From IMG/VR virus record IMGVR_UViG_3300013383_000020, positions 32,001-96,000 of that record: a stretch of 64,000 nucleotides of DNA. The stretch is one strand, 5' to 3'. Position numbers and translations under genes: made by a program. This DNA is from a virus. Lineage: Duplodnaviria; Caudoviricetes. Positions 17,124 through 43,631 of the stretch are shown here, piece by piece (the stretch's first letter is position 1; each line of letters opens with the position of its first letter). The notes under the pieces were generated by a model. That model was not told the origin of the DNA. It searched no databases and was given only the letters and a program-made list of their open reading frames with translations.

Positions 17124-17236
17124 AATAATTTCCAATGAATCCAAGTTTTCTTATTAAAGCAGAGAAAATATAGAAATAAGTATTAGAAGCAGAAATCAAC
17201 TGCTTCTTTTTTATTACAGAAAATGAGGTGATGAAT

Positions 17237-17527
17237 ATGTGCAGATATAAAAATGGAAATCCAAAAAGAACTTCTCAGTTTTTGTGCTTACATTGTATGA
17301 AAATAAACCAATTATCAGGAATACAGAGAGGAGGACACCAAAGGGAGAAATATCATATAAAAGATCTTTTATGTATTAATAAGGAATGCAAGAATCTTCC
17401 TTATACAAAAAATTTAGAGATCAGATGGTGTGATACATACGAAGAAGTGTATGAAAAGGCAATACAAATAAGAAGGCATTATTATTCAGACAAAATAGAG
17501 AATAATACAAATAGAAAGGTGTGTTGA
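17237..17527 (+). CDS. zinc-finger protein
   Basis: CxxC...QR...H.KDL.C motif. Confidence 0.65.
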   Translation: MCRYKNGNPKRTSQFLCLHCMKINQLSGIQRGGHQREKYHIKDLLCINKECKNLPYTKNLEIRWCDTYEEVYEKAIQIRRHYYSDKIENNTNRKVC

Positions 17528-17532
17528 TAGAT

Positions 17533-17805
17533 ATGGAATATGAAATAACTAATATTGGAAGCTCAGAAATTAAAGATATTCACCATATTGGAATTAATTA
17601 TGATGGCAACTATTACAGTGTAATTTTTGGCAAATATATTAATGGTGGATTCTTTAGTATTCCAAACTGGAATTGTGGTGGTGAACTGGCGAACTTTAGC
17701 GATGTGTTTTGGAATACCGAATCTATTTATAGAGCGTTAAAGAGAAAGAAAACAGCAAGAGTAATAGCACAAGCTATAGCTGACTATATGAAGGAGTGTG
17801 ATTGA
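17533..17805 (+). CDS. hypothetical protein
   Basis: ORF with SD. Confidence 0.7.
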   Translation: MEYEITNIGSSEIKDIHHIGINYDGNYYSVIFGKYINGGFFSIPNWNCGGELANFSDVFWNTESIYRALKRKKTARVIAQAIADYMKECD

Positions 17806-17806
17806 T

Positions 17807-18838
17807 ATGGCACAGACAAGAGACTACGCAACAAAGAAAAAGGGTAAAACTAAGGGTTATCCATTTTGGAATATGGAAGATATTAAGGGAATGATTGATT
17901 ATTTTCGGAACAATCAATTATGGAATGATTATTTGAAATTTATGTTGTTATTTTTATTTGGGAGAAGAGTAGGAGACACATTAGATATGGTGTGGTCTGA
18001 TATTTTTTATCCAAATGGAACAATAAAGGATGAGATTAGAACAATTGAGGAACAAAAGACTGGGAAATACAATATCATATATATTTCACCATATGCAAAG
18101 CAGGTTATTAAAGAATATCTACAGATAACAGGCATCAATCCATTATATGATTTAAATGACTATATTTTTCCATATGAGTTGAAGTATGAATGGAGAAAAA
18201 TGGAGAACGATGATTTTTTTCATGAAACAGAATCTACAAATTATTCTGATAATGAAGCATTAGAAATGATTAACAGGTTTGTAGAGTTATACAACAAAGA
18301 TTATAGCGAAGATAGAATTAAAAAGATTTTAAATGAGTGGAGAAAGCATCAAAAAGAATTTAAAACTTTAGGAGAATATATATATAAAGAAGTAATTTTT
18401 AAAGATATTTCAAAATGGCAAATTGGAGCATTTGATAAAATTTTTAAAAAAGCAGTGGAATTTAACAAAATTCAATACAAGGTGACGATTCACAGTATAA
18501 GGCGTTCCTTTGGATATTATAGTAAAGTAATTCATCCACATGATATGTTATGTTTGGAAACTTTACAGAATATTTTTGGACACAGTGACACACAAACAAC
18601 TATGCATTATATTGGTTTATCTGAAGAAAGAGAAAGAATGTATTATACCGATATTGGAGATTTTTTAAATGGTGTATCAAATGGGAATTATGATCTAAAG
18701 AAGAATAGCCCCGTAATAACAATAAAAGAACAAGACTTAAGAAAGATTTTATTAAAAGCCATTAAACTAAACTCTAATGATGCAGCGATATCTTTAAATC
18801 AAATATTAGACGAAATTGATGAGGTGAAATTAGAATGA
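17807..18838 (+). CDS. tyrosine recombinase (integrase family)
   Basis: Full catalytic set: GRRVGD (R), EQKTGK (K), HSIRR (H-x-x-R), FGHS (H), TMHYIG (Y). Confidence 0.9.
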   Translation: MAQTRDYATKKKGKTKGYPFWNMEDIKGMIDYFRNNQLWNDYLKFMLLFLFGRRVGDTLDMVWSDIFYPNGTIKDEIRTIEEQKTGKYNIIYISPYAKQVIKEYLQITGINPLYDLNDYIFPYELKYEWRKMENDDFFHETESTNYSDNEALEMINRFVELYNKDYSEDRIKKILNEWRKHQKEFKTLGEYIYKEVIFKDISKWQIGAFDKIFKKAVEFNKIQYKVTIHSIRRSFGYYSKVIHPHDMLCLETLQNIFGHSDTQTTMHYIGLSEERERMYYTDIGDFLNGVSNGNYDLKKNSPVITIKEQDLRKILLKAIKLNSNDAAISLNQILDEIDEVKLE

Positions 18839-27289: not shown

Positions 27290-27651
27290 GGTGAAAAAGT
27301 GAAAATATTTTTAGCAATTTTGATCCTAATTTCAGCATTGAATATAAATCTGACTTTAGAAAAGTTAAATGGTACAAAAAAGAGATATGATTTGCATTGT
27401 ATCGTGTCATTATTAGCATTTATTTTGTTTTTAATTTTCTTTTAAGTAGAGAATAATCTAATATAGAAGTATTTCTATTCAAGGCTGATCAGCCAAATTT
27501 TCCAAAAAAGTAACAAGAAATATTTTTTTCATTCGATTAGGCAGACGTGTTTATTTTCGAGTGATTTTATAACAAAAATTATTAAAATGAAAGGATTAAA
27601 CAGTAACTCCTAGGTAAAAATGATTGCGCAATCTCTGTAGATTAAAGGATT

Positions 27652-28752
27652 TTGACAGAGAATAAAGAAAAAAATAATTATTGTGAGCTTAATGGAAGAC
27701 CATTACGTTTACTAATAGGTGGTTCACCTTGTACATATTGGTCGATTGCTCAGAAGAACAATAGAGAAACAGAAGCAGAAGGGTTAGGATGGGAGCTATT
27801 TAAAAACTATTTAATAGCAAAGGATAAATTCAAACCTGATTTATTTCTATATGAGAATAATAAATCAGCTTCATCGGCTATAAAAGAACAGATTGTACAT
27901 GAGCTTGGATATCCATTACAAATTATTGACAGTGCATTAGTATCAGCTCAAAAGAGATTAAGATTCTATGTAAAGAACTGGACGTGTCCATTGCCAGAAG
28001 ATAGAGAAATTTTATTGAAAGATATTCTTGAATTATCGGAAAGTGTAGTTGAAAGAGAAAAGGCTTATTGTTTATGTACAGATCACGTTGGAACAACGAG
28101 AGATTATTTTAAGAAACATCAGAGTCAGATTGTATTTGAACCAGTAAGAATCGGAGATATTGGAAGTAATTCACAAGCTCATAGAGTTTATAGTTGTTAT
28201 GGGAAGTCTGTTAATTTAGTTGCTAATGGCGGTGGTCAAGGTGCAAAAACTGGCTTATATTTTGTACCACTTCCAGAAGAATTAGAGAAATTAGTGTGTG
28301 ATAAGGGGAAAATTTATAAGGTTACAAATAAAACTATCCCTACAAAATTTGGTGAATTCCAAGTAAATTTACCAGATGGATTATACATAATTAGAAAACT
28401 CACTGTGACAGAAGCAGCAAGATTACAAACTATGCCAGATAATTATATGAAGTCTGTATCTGCACAACAAGGATATAAAGGGCTTGGGAATGGTTGGACA
28501 GCAGAAGTAATTATTCATCAGTTAAAATATGGACTCAAAGATATCCCTAAAGATTATCCAATTGAAGTTTTATCTATGTACGATGGAATTGGAACTGGAA
28601 GATATTGTTTGGATAAAATGGGATTTACAAATATTACATATAAAGCATATGAGATTGATAAGTATGCTATGACAGTTGCCAATGATAATTATCCAGATAT
28701 TATTCAGTGTGGTGACGCATTCCAAGTCAGAAACGATGATTGGGAATATTAA
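27652..28752 (+). CDS. circularly permuted C5-cytosine DNA methyltransferase
   Basis: Motif order IV (GGSPC), VI (YENN), VIII (QKRLR), TRD, IX (RLQT), X (GNGW), then I (SMYDGIG), II (YEID), III. Confidence 0.85.
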   Translation: MTENKEKNNYCELNGRPLRLLIGGSPCTYWSIAQKNNRETEAEGLGWELFKNYLIAKDKFKPDLFLYENNKSASSAIKEQIVHELGYPLQIIDSALVSAQKRLRFYVKNWTCPLPEDREILLKDILELSESVVEREKAYCLCTDHVGTTRDYFKKHQSQIVFEPVRIGDIGSNSQAHRVYSCYGKSVNLVANGGGQGAKTGLYFVPLPEELEKLVCDKGKIYKVTNKTIPTKFGEFQVNLPDGLYIIRKLTVTEAARLQTMPDNYMKSVSAQQGYKGLGNGWTAEVIIHQLKYGLKDIPKDYPIEVLSMYDGIGTGRYCLDKMGFTNITYKAYEIDKYAMTVANDNYPDIIQCGDAFQVRNDDWEY

Positions 28753-31638: not shown

Positions 31639-32445
31639 TTGAAATTACAAAATGACAAGTATTACACACCAATAGAATTAGCAAACTACTGTTGGGATAA
31701 GGTTTTTGAAGTTGTTGGTGAAGAGAACATATCGGAGATTATTGAGCCTAGTGTGGGGAATGGCAGTTTTCTTCATCATACAGAGCAACTACCACATTTT
31801 GCGTATGATATTGAACCTGAGTGTGAATCTAATTTTACTCATATCTTTAAGCAGGATTATTTAAGTGCTGACATGAAGTATCTTTGGGGAAGGCTGATAA
31901 TAGGAAATCCACCATACGGAAGATGTTTAAGCATGGCACAGAAATTTTTCAAAAAGTCTGTTGCAATTGCAGATACAATCGCTTTTATTCTCCCTATAAG
32001 TCAATTAAATAATACAAGGTCAATGTATGAGTTTGACTTAGTATATAGTGAGGATTTAGGCATTCAACATTACACAGATAGAGATTTACATTGCTGTTTT
32101 AATATTTATCGCAGACCTGATAGTGGAGAATTGAATAGTAAACCAGTTACAAAATTAAAGGATATTGCTATCTATCGTCAGGATAGCAAGGGATATGACG
32201 AGAAAGATTTTGATATTCGTATGTGTTATTGGGGAGATGGAACTGCTGGAAAAATATTGAAGGATGGTGAACATTATTCAGCAGAATATAAAATTAAGAT
32301 AAATAATGAAGAATTAAGAAAAGATATTATTGAAGTACTTACTACATTTGATTGGAAAGAATATCTAAATTGTATTGCAATGCGAAAAATACAGCAATTT
32401 CATATTATAGAGATACTTAAACAGAATGTAAAAGGAATTAAGTAA
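31639..32445 (+). CDS. N6-adenine DNA methyltransferase (gamma-type order)
   Basis: DKYYTP, IEPSVGNGSF, GNPPY. Confidence 0.85.
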   Translation: MKLQNDKYYTPIELANYCWDKVFEVVGEENISEIIEPSVGNGSFLHHTEQLPHFAYDIEPECESNFTHIFKQDYLSADMKYLWGRLIIGNPPYGRCLSMAQKFFKKSVAIADTIAFILPISQLNNTRSMYEFDLVYSEDLGIQHYTDRDLHCCFNIYRRPDSGELNSKPVTKLKDIAIYRQDSKGYDEKDFDIRMCYWGDGTAGKILKDGEHYSAEYKIKINNEELRKDIIEVLTTFDWKEYLNCIAMRKIQQFHIIEILKQNVKGIK

Positions 32446-36632: not shown

Positions 36633-36923
36633 ATGAGAGAAGATAGGCTTAATTATATTGAGAAAGAGATTAGTAAAACACCACTTTATTCGCTGCTTGG
36701 CGCAGATGGTATTAGTGAATTGAAGAGTAGAATTATTGACATTATCTGTAATCAAGTACAGAAAGATTTGAGAGAAAGTCCGTATTATCTTATTAGTCCA
36801 GATGATGTAAATGAGACTCTAGGAGAGAATATTGTTAAGGAAGCAATTGATGAATTAAAAGAAGAGTGGAAGGACAAGCTCAAAGAATATATGTCTCAGA
36901 AACTTGAAGCAATGATGAAGTAA
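36633..36923 (+). CDS. hypothetical protein
   Basis: AAGGAG SD; bounded by repeat sites at 36590 and 36927. Confidence 0.7.
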   Translation: MREDRLNYIEKEISKTPLYSLLGADGISELKSRIIDIICNQVQKDLRESPYYLISPDDVNETLGENIVKEAIDELKEEWKDKLKEYMSQKLEAMMK

Positions 36924-36983
36924 CTTCACAGGAAAGCAACATATCTTTGGATTTTGAGAGAATAATACATTGGAGGTGAAAAC

Positions 36984-37211
36984 GTGAAGTTAATTGGTGA
37001 CGAAGCATTTGAAGAATATCAGAAATTAAAAGATAAGAATACTCCAAAGAAAGTAAAAACGCAAAAATATGAACTATTAGTTAAATCAGGATGGGAGTAT
37101 GCATGTCCTGCTTGTGGATGTGCTGTTGGTGCAAATAAATATGACACAGAATATACTGACGAATATCCATATTGTGACAATTGCGGTCAGGCATTAGATT
37201 GGAAAAAATAA
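36984..37211 (+). CDS. zinc-ribbon protein
   Basis: CPACG...YCDNCGQALDW; bounded by sites 36927 and 37210. Confidence 0.75.
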   Translation: MKLIGDEAFEEYQKLKDKNTPKKVKTQKYELLVKSGWEYACPACGCAVGANKYDTEYTDEYPYCDNCGQALDWKK

Positions 37212-37215
37212 CAAG

Positions 37216-37526
37216 AATCCAATCTTTCAAGCGAATTTTCAATCTTTACTCGATAGAATTTATGTTCATTTCCTTGCTTATCAAATCCCTTAATAATGGA
37301 TTTATCCAGCCAAAAGTAGCCCTCTTTCAGATCTTCTAATGGCTGTTTGGTTGTATCTCTCAAGAATGTAAGATACTCATTGTAAATTGGGTTCACTCAT
37401 ATACCTGAGTGTTATGTACATAACCTTTTACCTAGGATTATCCTTACCTTTCTTTGATTTTATGGCATTTGCAACTACCATTTATGTTGTTATTTGTTCA
37501 AAAATTTTCCAATGAAAGATTGGATT
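37216..37526. mobile_element. inverted DNA segment carrying leader and 5' end of the PAPS-reductase-like gene (OFF orientation)
   Basis: 14-bp inverted repeats AATCCAATCTTTCA (37216-37229) / TGAAAGATTGGATT (37513-37526); minus-strand ORF ...ENSLERLD joins plus-strand ERLDCTKLK. Confidence 0.85.
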
Positions 37527-39770
37527 GCACCAAATTGAAATCCTATGACAATATATCAGATGTAGATTTAGCAAGTTGGCAAGACTTAATCGAATTACAG
37601 AAAGAACATCTAACGCAGCTTGAAGCTGATTCATTAGAACTAATCAAAGAAAAGACAGAGAAGTTTAATACATATACTTCAATAATTCCTGTCTCTATGG
37701 GTAAGGATTCAATGCTTACCTGTCATCTAGTCAGAAAATTATATCCAGAAACCAAAGCAATATTTAATAACACATCGCTTGACTGTGCTGATACATACAA
37801 AATGGTTAAGACTTTTCCTAACTGTGAGATTATGAATCCTAAGAAGGGATTTTACCAGTATGTAGAATCAGATCACATGATCCCTACGAGATTTGCAAGA
37901 TTTTGCTGTAGGATTTTCAAGGTTGGTGTTATGGTATCCCAGCTTGACCACGACCATCCGTATCTTATGTGGATGGGAATGCGAAACGAAGAGTCAAATA
38001 CTCGTAGTGGTTATCAGGATGAATGGGTGAATGAGCAGGAATGGGGCAAGACCCGTTGGCAAGGTATTCTTCCTATTAGAAAATGGTCAGAGATGGATGT
38101 ATGGCTTTATACAATTTGGAAGAATATTGAGATAAATTCCAAGTATAAGAAGGGTTATTCTCGTTGTGGGTGGACTTTGTTACGCCCCTTTATATAGAAA
38201 TATATATCGAAAATGCAGTGAACACGTTTATCAGCGTGGTGTCAGATTAACGATGTTAGGAATTGTAGGAAATGACAATTAGTAATCTGGCTAACAGGGA
38301 AGCCTAAATCAAAGATGATATGGTAATCCTGTGCTAAGTCTTTTGGTTGAGACGAAAGGAAAGATAAAAATAAGTAGATTAGGAACAATTTATATTATAA
38401 GAAATAAATGTAATGATAAAGTTTATATTGGACAGACAACACAATCTGTTGAGGAAAGATTTAAACAACATCTAAAACCATCTGCACATAAAAAATTTGG
38501 TAATTATAAAATTTATAGAGCAATGAATAAATATGGTTCTGATAACTTCTATTGTGAAGTATTAGAAGAGAATATACCATATGAAAAACTCGATGAAAAA
38601 GAAGTATATTACATAGAAAAATTTGATGGTTTTCATAATGGATATAATTCTACTCCTGGTGGTGACGAAAAAACTATTTATAAAATTGATGATGTAAATG
38701 ATATTATCAATAGATTACAGACTGGTGAAATGATAAAAAACATTGCAAATGATTATGATGTTTGTCCTCATACAATAAGAAGAACTTTGCAAGCATATGG
38801 AATTAATACTCCAAGTGATATACAAGGCAAACATATTCGAGAAGATTTACGAACAATTCCAAGAGAAGAAATAAGGGAATTATACACAAAAGGACTATCG
38901 CATTCAGAAATTGCAAAGGAACTTGGTATAGATCAGAGAAGTGTTTCGAGAGTGGTAAAAGAACTTGGGATAGGGAAAAGAAACGTAATTGATTATAATT
39001 CGTTAGATTTAGACGCAATTTTGATTGATTTTGAAAAAGCCGAATCTGGCGAATTAAAGAAAAAAGATGTTTTGAAAAAATATGGCTTAAATCAACATTC
39101 ATTAAAAGTAATTAAGAAATTAAAAAATATATCATAAACGACCAAAAGAAAAGTCAATCGACTATTATGTAGGGCTGAGATTGATACAGCTCGAAGTGCT
39201 GCACACGAGTAATTATAGATTATTCTGAGTGATGTTCTGTCACAAACCTAACGTTAAACGAGGGTGATGATATAGTCAGTACTATATGAAAATATAGAAT
39301 TATATGGTAATATTGCGTGTCCGTTTTATACGAAGTCAACATGGATTTTGGACAAGTATTGGTATCCACAGGCTTATGAGAGATGGAGAAACATTTTAAA
39401 ACAAGACTTCATCGCAAATAAGAAATGGATAATCATGAACTGTACTATTGACGAATATCTTACACAGGCTTGGAATGGTGGAACATTCAGAGATGAACCA
39501 ACTGATGAAGTCATTAAAGAATTTGCTGAGTATAACGGATTGAATGTTGGCGACACAAAAGTAGCAAGGCAGTATTTTAATAAATATTGTGATGAGTGCG
39601 AAAAGAGAATAAAAGACAAGACAACGCTGGCTATGAACATGAAGTTCCACGGAAGAGATGTATCGAAGTTTTTGTGTAAGAAATGTTTTAAGAAATTGTA
39701 CGAGATGGATGATGATAAGTGGAATAAGTATGTTGAATCGTTTAAAAGAGATGGTTGTGCGTTGTTTTAA
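37517..39770 (+). CDS. PAPS-reductase/DndC-like PP-loop protein (N-terminus on inverted segment; exons 37517-38171 and 39307-39770)
   Basis: SMGKDS PP-loop, RFCC, GMRNEES..R, spliced GYSRCGCNIACP. Confidence 0.8.
38172..39306 (+). ncRNA. group I intron
   Basis: 5' splice after U with GGGU/GCCC P1; P7 elements GACTA (near 39160) and GATATAGTC (near 39270); terminal G; splicing restores the TGT Cys codon. Confidence 0.88.
38370..39137 (+). CDS. intron-encoded GIY-YIG homing endonuclease with C-terminal HTH repeats
   Basis: GTIYIIRN...VYIGQT...R...E...GYN; probable ATA start after AAAGGA. Confidence 0.85.
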   Translation: MSRLGTIYIIRNKCNDKVYIGQTTQSVEERFKQHLKPSAHKKFGNYKIYRAMNKYGSDNFYCEVLEENIPYEKLDEKEVYYIEKFDGFHNGYNSTPGGDEKTIYKIDDVNDIINRLQTGEMIKNIANDYDVCPHTIRRTLQAYGINTPSDIQGKHIREDLRTIPREEIRELYTKGLSHSEIAKELGIDQRSVSRVVKELGIGKRNVIDYNSLDLDAILIDFEKAESGELKKKDVLKKYGLNQHSLKVIKKLKNIS

Positions 39771-39875
39771 TAGAGAATAAGTAATTAGAGGTCACGAAAG
39801 CCTTGAAAAACAAGGCTTTTAGAATCTCAAAAGTCGAAGGAAATTTTTCTTTCTTGTGAAGATTGGAGGTGTGTT

Positions 39876-40199
39876 ATGAGAACAGAGAATATAAAAGTGA
39901 CATTTAAAATTCCAATTCCAGTTGATAAGCCTGACTTAAATGGTCATATATATTCAAAAGAAGCAATCAGAAATGCTTATAAAAATGTAAAGAATATTCC
40001 GATTGAGATGCCAAACAATGACGGTCAATTCTTTCCTATTGGAGTAGCACAGGAAGTTGAATTGATTGAAGATGACAATGGTGTGTATGTCACAGGAGTT
40101 GGTCTTGTCTGGCATGGTGGCACAGAAGAAAGTGTTGAGATGGTTGATGGCAAAGTAACGAGCTTTCATGTACGTGGCGTTGGGATCTCTAAAGATTAG
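39876..40199 (+). CDS. hypothetical phage protein
   Basis: GGAGGT SD. Confidence 0.7.
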   Translation: MRTENIKVTFKIPIPVDKPDLNGHIYSKEAIRNAYKNVKNIPIEMPNNDGQFFPIGVAQEVELIEDDNGVYVTGVGLVWHGGTEESVEMVDGKVTSFHVRGVGISKD

Positions 40200-40211
40200 G
40201 AGAATAATATT

Positions 40212-40529
40212 ATGAAGTTGATTAACAAATATGCGAACACAAAATACTCAAAAATGAGTGAATATTATTGTGAAATCACATCAGAGTTGGACAAACTTGT
40301 TGGACTTGATCTTAATGGACATTGGAAACATTATGTGCTTTGTGATTATGAAGATGGATGTTTTCCTATTAGAATTCCAGGTGGAACACTTGGAAGTATA
40401 GAGTACGATGAAAATAAAGTGATTACGAAAATTCATGTTTGTACTGATTATGTTGTGAAAACTTATCCTAATAATGTAAACGAACAGCTTCAGAAATTCA
40501 TTGGTCAGAAGATAGAGATAGGAGAATAA
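40212..40529 (+). CDS. hypothetical protein
   Basis: GGAG SD. Confidence 0.7.
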   Translation: MKLINKYANTKYSKMSEYYCEITSELDKLVGLDLNGHWKHYVLCDYEDGCFPIRIPGGTLGSIEYDENKVITKIHVCTDYVVKTYPNNVNEQLQKFIGQKIEIGE

Positions 40530-40533
40530 CCAT

Positions 40534-40881
40534 ATGGCAGATAGACAGACCAAAACTATACAGTGGACAATAAATCTACCCATGAATTTTCCTTCAGATT
40601 GGGATAATGACATGATAGAATTCCATCTAAACGAATCAAGTTGGTGTTGTAGCAATCTCATTAGTGAACTTGAAAAATATGATGAGGAAAATGGTTGTAT
40701 TTGTGGTATATGCGAAGCAAAAGTGACTGATAAGATAGAGAACTTAATAAGTAAAGAAAGAAATAAAACACTTGATGAAGTTCTAAAAGCTTGTGACATT
40801 GAATGTGGATTATATAGTGGCGATGTTAAGAATCTTACAAGACATGTTTTGATGAGAGTACTTGATGGATTGAGAGAATAA
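40534..40881 (+). CDS. hypothetical protein
   Basis: GGAG SD; Cys-rich. Confidence 0.7.
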   Translation: MADRQTKTIQWTINLPMNFPSDWDNDMIEFHLNESSWCCSNLISELEKYDEENGCICGICEAKVTDKIENLISKERNKTLDEVLKACDIECGLYSGDVKNLTRHVLMRVLDGLRE

Positions 40882-40904
40882 ATATCTGTGAGGTGGTGAA
40901 ATAG

Positions 40905-41594
40905 ATGAATGAAATAAAAAATGGTACAAGATTATATATAAACCTGACTAACAAATGTAATACAAACTGTCCATTTTGTTGTATGTATAGTGGAGTTGAC
41001 AAAGATAGGTTTCTTACATTTGAACAATTTGAGGACATAATTGATAATTGTACAACGGATTTTGAGCTTCAGTTAGAAGGTGGTGAACCACTTTTACATA
41101 AAGATATTTTTCTCTTTATAGAATACGCAATTCACACTAATAAATGTACTAAGGTAATCGTATTGACTAACGGAATTTTACTTCCAGCTTATATGAATAG
41201 ATTTATAGGCATTGCTAACTGGTACAATACTAAATTTGAATTTAAGATAAGTATTAATTACTTCTTGCTAAATCAAGCAAAGAAATCAGGCATAGATCAG
41301 TTAAAAGTATTTAGCAATATTGCATTTGCGACAGATTATATTCCAAATATAGATGTTATATTCAATGTAAGAAAAAGGCATAGTATTGATGAGTGGATCG
41401 AAAATGAGTTAGAAAAATATGATTTAAAGAAAAAATCTAATATTTTTTATTTACAATCATATGGAAAACTTACAGATAGCGATGAATATGATAAGCCAAT
41501 AATAGTTCAAAATATAGACGATTGGAAAATTTATGCCAGCGATGGAACATGTTTTGGACAAGATTTAATTGCCAGAAGCGAATATGAAAAATAG
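40905..41594 (+). CDS. radical SAM protein 1
   Basis: CNTNCPFC, GGEP, TNG. Confidence 0.9.
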   Translation: MNEIKNGTRLYINLTNKCNTNCPFCCMYSGVDKDRFLTFEQFEDIIDNCTTDFELQLEGGEPLLHKDIFLFIEYAIHTNKCTKVIVLTNGILLPAYMNRFIGIANWYNTKFEFKISINYFLLNQAKKSGIDQLKVFSNIAFATDYIPNIDVIFNVRKRHSIDEWIENELEKYDLKKKSNIFYLQSYGKLTDSDEYDKPIIVQNIDDWKIYASDGTCFGQDLIARSEYEK

Positions 41595-41606
41595 GAGCGA
41601 AATAGA

Positions 41607-42542
41607 ATGAACACAATTAAGTTTAGCAAAAGAGAGAATAAAACTACGGAGCAGCATAATTTGCAAATTACAAATATTGTAGATTCTAATATATTTGGTT
41701 CTCATCTAAAAATGTACACACCTTGTAATTTAAATATTTTTGTCACAGAGTCGTGTCAAAATAAATGTTTTTTCTGTATCAATGATAAGACGAATAAAAA
41801 TATACACATGCGTCCCTTATCAGATGAAGAATATATTATTGGGCTTAAAAAATTATTGAACGAACTTAATTGTGAGAATTTTGAAACAACCATTACTGGT
41901 GGAGAACCTACTTTAGACATTCATAGGTTTGTAGAAACTATGCGAATTTGTCATGAACATAATTTAAAGTGCAGGACAGTAAGCACAACAGGATTAAATC
42001 TCATGAGTTTGTATGATGGGAAACCACTGTGCCAGCATATGATTGAAAACAATTTTGTACATAACATCAACATAAGTAGAATGCATTATGATGAATCAAA
42101 AAATAACGAAATCTCTGGTGGAAGAAATATAACAGATAAGGATATCGAAAGATTGGCATTATTCTTCAAATTAAATAATGCCGAAATGAGAGTAAGTTGT
42201 AATCTGATAAAAGGTTATATTGATAATCCTGATGACATTTTAAAATTTATAAAACATTATATGAATCTTGGTGTTGAAACGGTTATGTTCAGAGAATTAG
42301 AAATGTGTGAGAATGTTAGATTAAATAATATTGTAGAAAGTATACTTGGATTATTTGAATATATAGAAACTTTACATGGAATGGTTTATGACGTAGACGT
42401 ATATAGTTACAAAGATTTAATCGTGAAACATTACAAAACTTTGGAGAATATAAATAAAGAGATAACATATTCACTTTCTTATAAAAATGGTATTGTGAAA
42501 GATGGTTTTATAGGAAATAAACTAAATGTCAAATTGACATAG
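41607..42542 (+). CDS. radical SAM protein 2
   Basis: CQNKCFFC, TGGEP, NISR. Confidence 0.9.
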   Translation: MNTIKFSKRENKTTEQHNLQITNIVDSNIFGSHLKMYTPCNLNIFVTESCQNKCFFCINDKTNKNIHMRPLSDEEYIIGLKKLLNELNCENFETTITGGEPTLDIHRFVETMRICHEHNLKCRTVSTTGLNLMSLYDGKPLCQHMIENNFVHNINISRMHYDESKNNEISGGRNITDKDIERLALFFKLNNAEMRVSCNLIKGYIDNPDDILKFIKHYMNLGVETVMFRELEMCENVRLNNIVESILGLFEYIETLHGMVYDVDVYSYKDLIVKHYKTLENINKEITYSLSYKNGIVKDGFIGNKLNVKLT

Positions 42543-42551
42543 GAGGTTAAG

Positions 42552-43631
42552 ATGATAAAGGTAGGTTCTGAACGAGAAATCAAATTTGATAAAGAATTAA
42601 GAAACAAAAGACATATGGCTAAAACATGTGGAACAAAAGATTACAATATTAATAATTACGATTTAAAAGAGTTTGAGTTTGCAACTGGCAATAAAAAAGT
42701 ATATGGGAATGTAAATTTCAATATTTTCATTGATGATTATTGCAACGCTGACTGTAAATTTTGTGTGGCTCAGTTAAGATATGAACATAAAAATGCTATG
42801 TATAACAAAGGTCATATAAAAGATGTAGATAAATATTTGAGTAGGCTTGATGAAGTTTTAAGAATCGCAAAAGCTTTAGATACATCGGTTAGTATTACAG
42901 GTGGAGAACCAACAATGAGTCCAATCTTAACAGAAGTATTAAAAATGGTTGATTCATATGGTTTTAGAAAACGAACCATTACAACTAATGGAAGTGGTTT
43001 ATTTCAAATCCAAGACAATGATACGATTCTGAATAATCTCATTAAATACAATTGGGATTATTTGAATATTAGTAGAGCAAGTTATGATGATGAACTTAAT
43101 CGTAAAATTATGAGATATGTATCAGATAAAGAATATTGTACTATGGATATGTTAAATGAAATTCTAAATATTTCTAATAAAACTAATCTAAAACATCGTA
43201 TCAGTTGTCTCTTACTCAAAGAGAGTGTAAATTCCGTTGAAGAAATGAAAAAGTATATTGATTTTTATAGTAAACTCGGTGTTAATAATTTCATTTTTAG
43301 AGAATTAATGGATTACGATAAAAGTGCGGTCAACACAGAAAAAATGAAATACTGCGATGAGAATAAGATTAAGTTATATGATATTTGGAATGATTTTGAT
43401 AAATATCCTGAGTTTGAACCATACTTAAATATTCTTGGATATTACTATTATGTGGAGATTTATAAATATTTAGGAATGACAGTAGCAAGTGAAACAGCAG
43501 ACTTGAATATCCAGAATCGTGAGGTTGCAGCACATGATGATGTTGTTTATGAGATGGTATTTCATAATAATGGTAACTTATGTGCAAGTTGGATTGATAA
43601 CGAAAGAATTTTAGACAAGTACATAGACTAG
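42552..43631 (+). CDS. radical SAM protein 3
   Basis: CNADCKFC, TGGEP, TTNGS, NISR. Confidence 0.9.
   Translation: MIKVGSEREIKFDKELRNKRHMAKTCGTKDYNINNYDLKEFEFATGNKKVYGNVNFNIFIDDYCNADCKFCVAQLRYEHKNAMYNKGHIKDVDKYLSRLDEVLRIAKALDTSVSITGGEPTMSPILTEVLKMVDSYGFRKRTITTNGSGLFQIQDNDTILNNLIKYNWDYLNISRASYDDELNRKIMRYVSDKEYCTMDMLNEILNISNKTNLKHRISCLLLKESVNSVEEMKKYIDFYSKLGVNNFIFRELMDYDKSAVNTEKMKYCDENKIKLYDIWNDFDKYPEFEPYLNILGYYYYVEIYKYLGMTVASETADLNIQNREVAAHDDVVYEMVFHNNGNLCASWIDNERILDKYID

Follow-up and report, generated by a model that had tools for sequence, protein, structure and literature searches.

The 64,000-nt stretch of phage DNA analysed here (the window; positions 32,001 to 96,000 of the IMG/VR record IMGVR_UViG_3300013383_000020) derives from a linear IMG/VR viral contig of 108.5 kb with a completeness estimate of 65%. 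It carries a gene of the PAPS-reductase family in which the 5' end lies on the minus strand, while the body is read from the plus strand and is itself interrupted by an intron. The misoriented piece is bounded by inverted repeats and is interpreted below as a probable invertible on/off segment. ON denotes the arrangement in which the N-terminus is collinear with the body, and OFF the arrangement present in the window. The features of the locus are as follows:

36984-37211, plus strand: gene for a 75-amino-acid (aa) Zn-ribbon-like protein, with its stop just 5' of the left site; the inverted N-terminal open reading frame (ORF) converges on it
37210-37233, no strand: left recombination site in its present OFF hybrid form, with outer arm AACAAGAAT and 6-bp spacer CCAATC (37219-37224)
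37216-37229, no strand: left arm of the 14-nt repeat, where the strand-change joints of Logan contigs fall (14 ambiguous letters)
37230-37512, sense strand now minus: invertible interior of 283 nt, inverted relative to the flanks of ON relatives
37218-37396, minus strand: GTG start and first 59 codons (MNPIYNEY...ENSLERL), 57 of 59 residues identical to residues 1-59 of the homologue P0001, orientation by tblastn
37397-37512, minus strand: leader (5' untranslated region), with a homologous leader preceding the start codon in L005, L010 and further ON loci
37513-37526, no strand: right arm of the repeat, within the coding sequence (codons for ERLD)
37509-37532, no strand: right recombination site in its present hybrid form, with arm CCAATGAAA from the leader end, spacer GATTGG and weak arm ATTGCACCA from the gene body
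37514-38172, plus strand: gene body, exon 1, with PP-loop SMGKDS and PAPS_reduct domain (PF01507, E 1e-20), now lacking a ribosome-binding site (RBS) and start
38173-39307, plus strand: intron of 1,135 nt with a GIY-YIG homing-endonuclease ORF at 38331-39137 (PF01541); intron-less DNA forms exist
39308-39770, plus strand: gene body, exon 2, the Cys-rich C-terminal part
39838-39855, no strand: dyad site at the downstream edge of the gene cassette

The segment has the bounds of an inverton and agrees with the inverted segment and 14-bp repeats described in an earlier note on this DNA: perfect 14-nt inverted repeats (37216-37229 and 37513-37526) enclose 283 nt, giving a whole invertible segment of 311 nt. 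Comparison of the window with ON relatives returns inverted high-scoring segment pairs of 311 nt at 95-99.7% identity. The minus-strand ORF begins with GTG at 37396, exits the segment after 59 residues (...ENSLERL(D)) and ends at 37187, so that it is 69 aa long in the present arrangement. The plus-strand body restarts with ERLDCTKLKSY at 37514, and the first 59 residues of the minus-strand ORF end in the same residues with which the gene resumes. In the ON form the left arm is intergenic, five bases past the upstream stop codon, and codons 56-60 contain the right arm; this is the layout of a partial intergenic inverton. Judged by sequence, inversion alters the product, since the OFF form parts the RBS, the start and 57 codons from the body. 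The earlier description of the flipped portion as the first ~60 codons holds broadly and can be corrected to about 55 codons in the interior plus four to five in the arm. The repeat by itself is unremarkable against chance, because shuffled sequence yields comparable counts: one 14-nt inverted repeat with arms 60-600 nt apart occurs in the window, compared with 0-2 per composition-matched shuffle and about 0.4 expected. What exceeds chance is the exact match between the repeat positions and the point at which a conserved gene changes strand.

When the gene body was used as the query of an exhaustive profile-free search, P0001 was identified, a homologue of 429 aa (92% identical) that runs uninterrupted through MNPIYNEY...LEKLDCTKLKSY. 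In more distant relatives of full length, approximately 35-45% identical, the same N-terminal domain is joined to the body. Homologues lacking the MNPIYNEY N-terminus had been named beforehand as evidence that would speak against an inversion; instead, both P0001 and the distant relatives carry this N-terminus fused to the body. When exons 37514-38172 and 39308-39770 are joined, they form an open frame of 373 aa that is 95% identical to residues 57-429 of P0001. By these comparisons the gene is intact and not decayed, because the N-terminal piece and the joined exons stay open and match P0001, and its two interruptions are the inversion and the intron. The intron lies between the G and C codons of ...SRCG/CNIACPF, and its endonuclease ORF is of the GIY-YIG/helix-turn-helix type. 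Runs X1 and X13, as well as P0001 with its loci, contain intron-less alleles as DNA. In the protein alignment, the linker that connects the N-terminal domain to the PP-loop core is variable and rich in gaps, and the in-gene repeat arm falls within it. Rfam models gave no match across 36800-39500, including the intron. Megablast of the region against deposited phages returned nothing, tblastn with the N-terminal piece returned only noise, and no relatives were found among species-representative bacterial genomes.

The protein belongs to the PAPS-reductase family (PF01507, E 1e-20 to 1e-22), and the S-x-G-K-D-S motif is invariant in the alignment. Its best NCBIfam matches are the uncharacterised PRK13795/PRK08557 proteins, and its best match in the defence library is BrxP, limited to the PAPS-reductase part (positions 99-360 of 779). 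An identity as BrxP of BREX type 4 was rejected, as the match is partial, BREX context is lacking and the resemblance is at the level of the domain. An identity as DndC was likewise not supported, with no DndC model among the NCBIfam or PADLOC matches. Of the earlier label 'PAPS-reductase/DndC-like', the first half therefore stands, whereas the second reduces to the general PAPS_reduct domain and the BrxP model match. Downstream of the gene (39876-43631), the only side checked for dnd neighbours, none was found: the ORFs matched radical-SAM proteins or nothing of dnd type. A row of three radical-SAM genes follows closely, at 40905-43631. The enzyme probably has a role in DNA modification, because its relatives are of the BrxP/DndC/SspD type, methylase cassettes occupy the same slot and sister switches occur on methylases.

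The orientation of the segment was read from assembled contigs (IMG/VR, metagenome contigs and Logan contigs of sequencing runs), with 44 related IMG/VR loci fetched for comparison. By tblastn, the segment is OFF in the window and in L020, L021, L038 and L050, and ON in about 37 loci. A pattern specific for the OFF junction led to at least 9 IMG/VR contigs. An unbiased scan, in which the junction pattern was kept ambiguous at the single diagnostic base, recovered 26 metagenome contigs, of which 9 are OFF and 17 ON; they come from numerous assemblies of gut samples, both human and animal. In Logan contigs from three runs in two studies (X18, X19 and X13), the strand changes precisely at the arms, corresponding to the ON form, and in the X18 contig the segment is flipped relative to the window with 0 differences. 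The Logan contigs of four sequencing runs included no junction-bridging OFF contig among the matches listed. Both orientations thus exist at the same breakpoints in natural DNA, as is characteristic of an inverton. The proposal that the gene had been captured in its OFF state is borne out, with ON homologues that read straight through and contigs of both kinds. The earlier note had also allowed that only the ON arrangement might be real and the OFF form an assembly artefact. This is ruled out, because OFF junctions recur across pipelines in more than 20 contigs, from different assemblers, assemblies and samples, with identical breakpoints, and because the arms of 11-14 nt are shorter than the usual assembler k-mers, so that such a repeat should not cause a misjoin.

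Closely related contigs differ in the state of the segment. OFF locus L020 and ON locus L036 are 100% identical in the segment and 99.8% in the body, and OFF locus L021 and ON locus L013, both from one IMG dataset, are 100% identical over the segment plus 3,994 nt downstream. A maximum-likelihood tree of 37 rows, built from the body together with the segment normalised for orientation, needs 7 state changes, at least 6 of which are forced by well-supported branches, and one set of identical rows contains both ON and OFF. The repeat is required for flipping, because OFF loci are confined to those that bear it: 4 of 16 loci with the repeat are OFF, compared with 0 of 25 without it (p = 0.018), the latter comprising a second N-terminal allele and several variants. 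One further contig, L046, terminates exactly within a repeat arm. From these pairs and the tree, the inversion is real and recurrent, and flips are both repeated and recent in related gut-phage contigs.

The arms of the segment belong to a family of dyad sites with a 9-6-9 layout, in which each site has its own 6-nt spacer. The pattern ARGAAW-N6-WTTC, which the left site (37210-37233) fits, has 24 matches where 4.5 ± 2.2 are expected (approximately 5-fold), and none of 100 shuffles reached this count. A position weight matrix (PWM) was built from 15 other dyad sites, which themselves score 10-22. The left site scores 14.3 in its present OFF form, where the inner arm consists of gene codons 56-59, and 16.4 when restored to the ON form AACAAGAAT-CCAATC-TTTCATTGG, a value equalled or bettered at only 11 window positions. 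Together with P0001, this restored score supports the claim that re-inversion yields one continuous gene with its leader and a canonical intergenic site. The spacer of the right site, GATTGG, is the reverse complement of the left spacer CCAATC; one half of this in-gene site is strong, within the top 74 of 128,000 half-site positions, and the other half is weak.

Recombination sites of the lox/FRT/dif type consist of two dyad arms flanking a spacer of 6-8 bp, which has to be the same in both partners, and such sites are expected to vary in the spacer only, in both partners alike. The present sites have inverted arms around a spacer of this size, and the restored left site falls within the score range of its family. 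In most lineages both partners carry CCAATC; in L019 both carry CAACGC, and in L049 both carry TCGCTG. These changes cost amino-acid changes in the protein, and the flanking letters TTTCA and CAAT are unchanged. Partner spacers are accordingly common to the two sites and change together, with the exception of L038 discussed below. Scans for further contigs with the CAACGC or TCGCTG spacers recovered only L019 and L049.

The same sites mark the borders of exchangeable gene cassettes. Depending on the contig (loci L121-L130), the 75-aa gene, the same outer arm and the spacer CCAATC are followed by the PAPS-reductase gene, a LemA gene, a C5 methylase or an N6/N4 methylase. Homology between the cassette variants breaks at the spacer or the inner arm. 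Because this holds across four cassettes that share one outer arm and spacer, the alignments place crossovers at the spacer or inner arm, and the dyad sites are, on this comparison, crossover points. The earlier suggestion that the repeat family is recombinogenic is well supported by the identical outer arm and spacer in front of four different cassettes. The cassette also appears mobile between otherwise diverged phage genomes, because genomes G000, G003 and G004 have only 11-26 kb that can be aligned and yet their PAPS-reductase cassettes are 95-100% identical; with so little aligning, whole-genome comparison of the three was uninformative.

When the related loci were all compared with one another, giving 548 kb of pairwise collinear alignment, small inverted blocks appeared at five places only:

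Inversion 1, window 37216-37526: start of the PAPS-reductase-family gene
Inversion 2, about 140 nt, L013:5361-5515 (also L021, L023 and L112-L115): second gene with a PAPS_reduct domain (349 aa), of which the segment holds the leader, the ATG and five codons
Inversion 3, about 153 nt, L030:616-771 and L031:1148-1302: 5' of a C5 methylase (L030) or a radical-SAM gene (L031)
Inversion 4, 319 nt, L030 and L031 5996-6314: within a D12-class adenine methylase, intact in L031 and split in L030
Inversion 5, about 162 nt: start of a C5-methylase gene in relatives; L026 (ON) and L027 (OFF) differ by exactly this inversion
Homologue of inversion 5 in the window, 27512-27680: arms TATTTTTTTC at 27521-27530 and 27667-27676, ON state

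All five are built alike in the arms (GAAW-like, 6 nt, TTTC-like), and in each the two sites share a spacer particular to that inversion. Inversion 2 lies directly 3' of the PAPS-reductase gene in relatives, has the spacer TAGTAT at both sites and is flipped in four IMG/VR contigs; its gene is absent from the window. In the near-identical loci L013, L021 and L023, switches 1 and 2 are set independently. Inversion 3 provides the same MTENK start as the methylase switch. In the window copy of inversion 5, the left arm is a canonical dyad site and the interior of 136 nt comprises the leader, a TTG start (27652) and about five codons of a C5 cytosine DNA methylase (ORF 27652-28752, PF00145). A scan for 10-nt inverted repeats with a TTTC anchor returned mostly chance pairs, and only the C5-methylase pair 27521/27667 was backed by relatives. 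The leaders within three invertible segments (37397-37512, 27531-27666 and L013:5375-5486) have short motifs in common, for example CCTAGGTAAAA, and two of the three contain the palindrome GATTGCGCAATCTC, which suggests a common leader module.

No recombinase gene adjoins the segment, as the earlier note observed, but the genome does encode tyrosine recombinases, one of them in the window. Serine recombinases (PF00239) were absent from five genomes in a search that was positive for control genomes, so that a serine invertase of the Hin/Gin/Cin type was not found. Tyrosine recombinases number 2-5 in each genome examined; one lies at G000:C1:22104-22619. The candidate invertase of the window is a tyrosine recombinase of 346 aa (17798-18838, plus strand, PF00589) located about 19 kb upstream, with weak matches to XerA, XerC, XerD and integron integrases. 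It is the last gene of an operon (17137-18838) that also encodes a 99-aa ORF and a DUF6618 protein and is headed by a dyad site at 17137-17152, CCAATGAAT-ccaagt-TTTCTTATT. From these features, it may be the enzyme that flips the segment.

Taken together, the evidence supports, with a probability of roughly two in three, the reading that 37216-37526 is an invertible on/off segment (a partial intergenic inverton) containing the leader, the GTG start and about 57 codons, which is inverted site-specifically, probably by a tyrosine recombinase, and is OFF in this contig. A tyrosine recombinase acting at spacer-matched dyad sites is the likely mechanism. Under this model, a phage-encoded enzyme would act on dif/lox-like sites with arms of about 9 nt around a 6-bp spacer. 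The intergenic site (in its ON form) and the half-canonical site in codons 55-61 would serve as partners with the same spacer in inverted orientation. Strand exchange in or beside the spacer would then invert the intervening DNA, because the partner spacers match in inverted orientation. The ON form would produce the full-length enzyme of 429 aa, and the OFF form only the 69-aa N-terminal peptide plus a body without RBS or start. A phage population would consequently be mixed for a probable DNA-modifying activity, and this mixed state could serve to hedge bets against restriction systems of the host, whether these depend on the modification or are blocked by it. The earlier note left the choice between a programmed switch and an accident undecided. 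A recurrent switch is favoured by the two orientations, the identical OFF/ON pairs, the at least 6-7 flips, the covariation of the spacers and the four further inversions.

Several observations weigh against this reading. No recombinase is tied to the switch by position or by presence and absence, and relatives whose gene is without the repeat carry the same set of tyrosine recombinases. A scan of the leader with the sigma-70 consensus found no promoter match. The spacer covariation comes from two single contigs, L019 and L049, and L038 is OFF although its two spacers mismatch at one position. The in-gene site has only one good arm. Finally, all six contigs (from six samples, among loci L116-L121, L124, L127 and L128) in which the exact left flank of the window occurs together with the PAPS cassette have the OFF orientation, and this flank was not found with an ON form; with other left flanks ON predominates. 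The OFF state may therefore be fixed or strongly favoured in this left-flank lineage. The arms and the gene are still intact there.

The last two points also count for the strongest of the rival explanations, in which a recombinase devoted to cassette exchange acts at an accidental half-site within the gene, the inversion is a neutral or harmful by-product and OFF has become fixed in the lineage of the window. The clear association of the same site family with cassette exchange points and the lack of a dedicated adjoining invertase are also consistent with this explanation, which is nevertheless judged unlikely. Against it, the gene pieces remain intact and conserved in OFF lineages, and in two diverged lineages both partner spacers have shifted jointly. 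It is hard to call accidents five like-built inversions that all affect the 5' end or the inside of DNA-modification-type genes, and the flips themselves are frequent, with at least 6-7 events and approximately one-third of contigs OFF.

A second rival dispenses with a dedicated enzyme and attributes the inversion to general recombination or template-switching at any inverted repeat of 9-14 nt, the dyad context being incidental. Arm sequence varies between lineages yet the two arms invariably match, L038 inverted over a mere 9 identical bases, and no recombinase is linked to the switch, all of which would fit. Against this, small inversions occur at only five places in the 548 kb aligned, all with arms of the GAAW-like / 6 nt / TTTC-like form. 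Variation in the arms is confined to the 6-nt spacer between fixed flanking letters, and the left arms coincide with sites of the dyad family. Homology-driven inversion is accordingly considered improbable. Least credible of all, along with the assembly artefact dismissed above, is that the arms are kept for a long-range mRNA helix between the leader and codons 56-60 with inversion as a side effect: the predicted fold of the ON transcript pairs both arms (z = -3.6) and the L012 variant keeps pairing only through G-U, but pairing of this kind follows from the build of any inverted repeat, and the other imperfect variants (L005, L009 and L038) are not RNA-compatible.

The proposed site-specific switch has partial counterparts among known systems. 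Escherichia coli fimS is an element of approximately 300 bp with 9-bp inverted repeats that provides on/off control through the tyrosine recombinases FimB and FimE. The phage segment is like it in size, short repeats and on/off layout, but fimS contains only a promoter, has adjacent recombinase genes and controls a bacterial surface structure, whereas the present target is a phage enzyme gene. With lox, FRT and dif sites the phage sites share the 9-6-9 layout, site-specific spacers, a common spacer in recombining partners and a spacer orientation that predicts inversion; unlike them, the putative in-gene partner has one weak arm. In Clostridioides difficile, recV is not adjacent to cwpV, and RecV serves several switches. 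The cwpV switch is a 195-bp segment between short inverted repeats that is flipped both ways by RecV, which belongs to the XerC/XerD group among tyrosine recombinases (Emerson et al. 2009, PMC2784873). The phage element is likewise a small segment between short inverted repeats, but the cwpV segment lacks a promoter or ORF and is terminator-based, whereas the phage segment holds the start of a coding sequence and its recombinase is only a candidate.

To our knowledge, programmed inversions in phages are textbook material only for tail-fibre host-range switching by serine invertases. In phages Mu and P1, such enzymes invert kilobase-sized segments, G and C respectively, that supply alternative tail-fibre ends for host range. 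The present segment is like Mu G and P1 C, with their invertases Gin and Cin (cited in PMC9881135 and PMC12823448), in that an inversion inside a phage genome alters the protein made, but no serine recombinase was found here and the target is an enzyme gene. Partial intergenic invertons and gene-altering programmed inversions have been described in bacteria (Milman et al. 2023, PMC9881135; Chanin et al. 2023, PMC10028968), where frequent targets are restriction-modification, BREX and DISARM genes (PMC9881135, PMC10028968). As in those cases, one arm of the phage segment lies in the gene and one outside it, the coding sequence is altered and both orientations occur in nature. The bacterial examples are chromosomal and mostly provide shufflon-like alternative gene ends, in contrast to a plain on/off switch of a phage accessory gene with no alternative N-terminus. 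Viral invertons reported so far are tentative, read-based candidates only (PMC13501310). These comprise 16 putative cases obtained by metagenome read mapping with TPMM, with read support for both orientations; no mechanism or site family is given, and the example shown lies within a Microviridae capsid gene (PMC13501310). They resemble the present element in being segments of viral contigs bounded by inverted repeats. On/off DNA switches are well known in bacteria and barely described for phage accessory genes.

If the switch operates as proposed, phages would use phase variation for counter-defence or epigenetic genes. It flips repeatedly in a widespread group of gut phages and has sister switches on methylase genes, within what would be a compact recombinase/site system in which partner choice depends on the spacer. 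The switch would further account for the 'broken' look of such genes in metagenome assemblies. Natural phage populations would have mixed modification states, which bears on host-range prediction and on methylation signals in viromes. A more far-reaching version, put forward tentatively and held to be less likely than not, is that one phage recombinase reads spacer-distinct dif/lox-like sites, switches five or more DNA-modification genes independently of one another (a pair of PAPS-reductase-like genes, two C5 methylases or a radical-SAM gene, and the D12 adenine methylase) and swaps them as cassettes between phage genomes. Were this so, a single lineage would make virions or lysogens with many combinations of modification states, as a viral counterpart of bacterial phasevarions that hedges bets against restriction.

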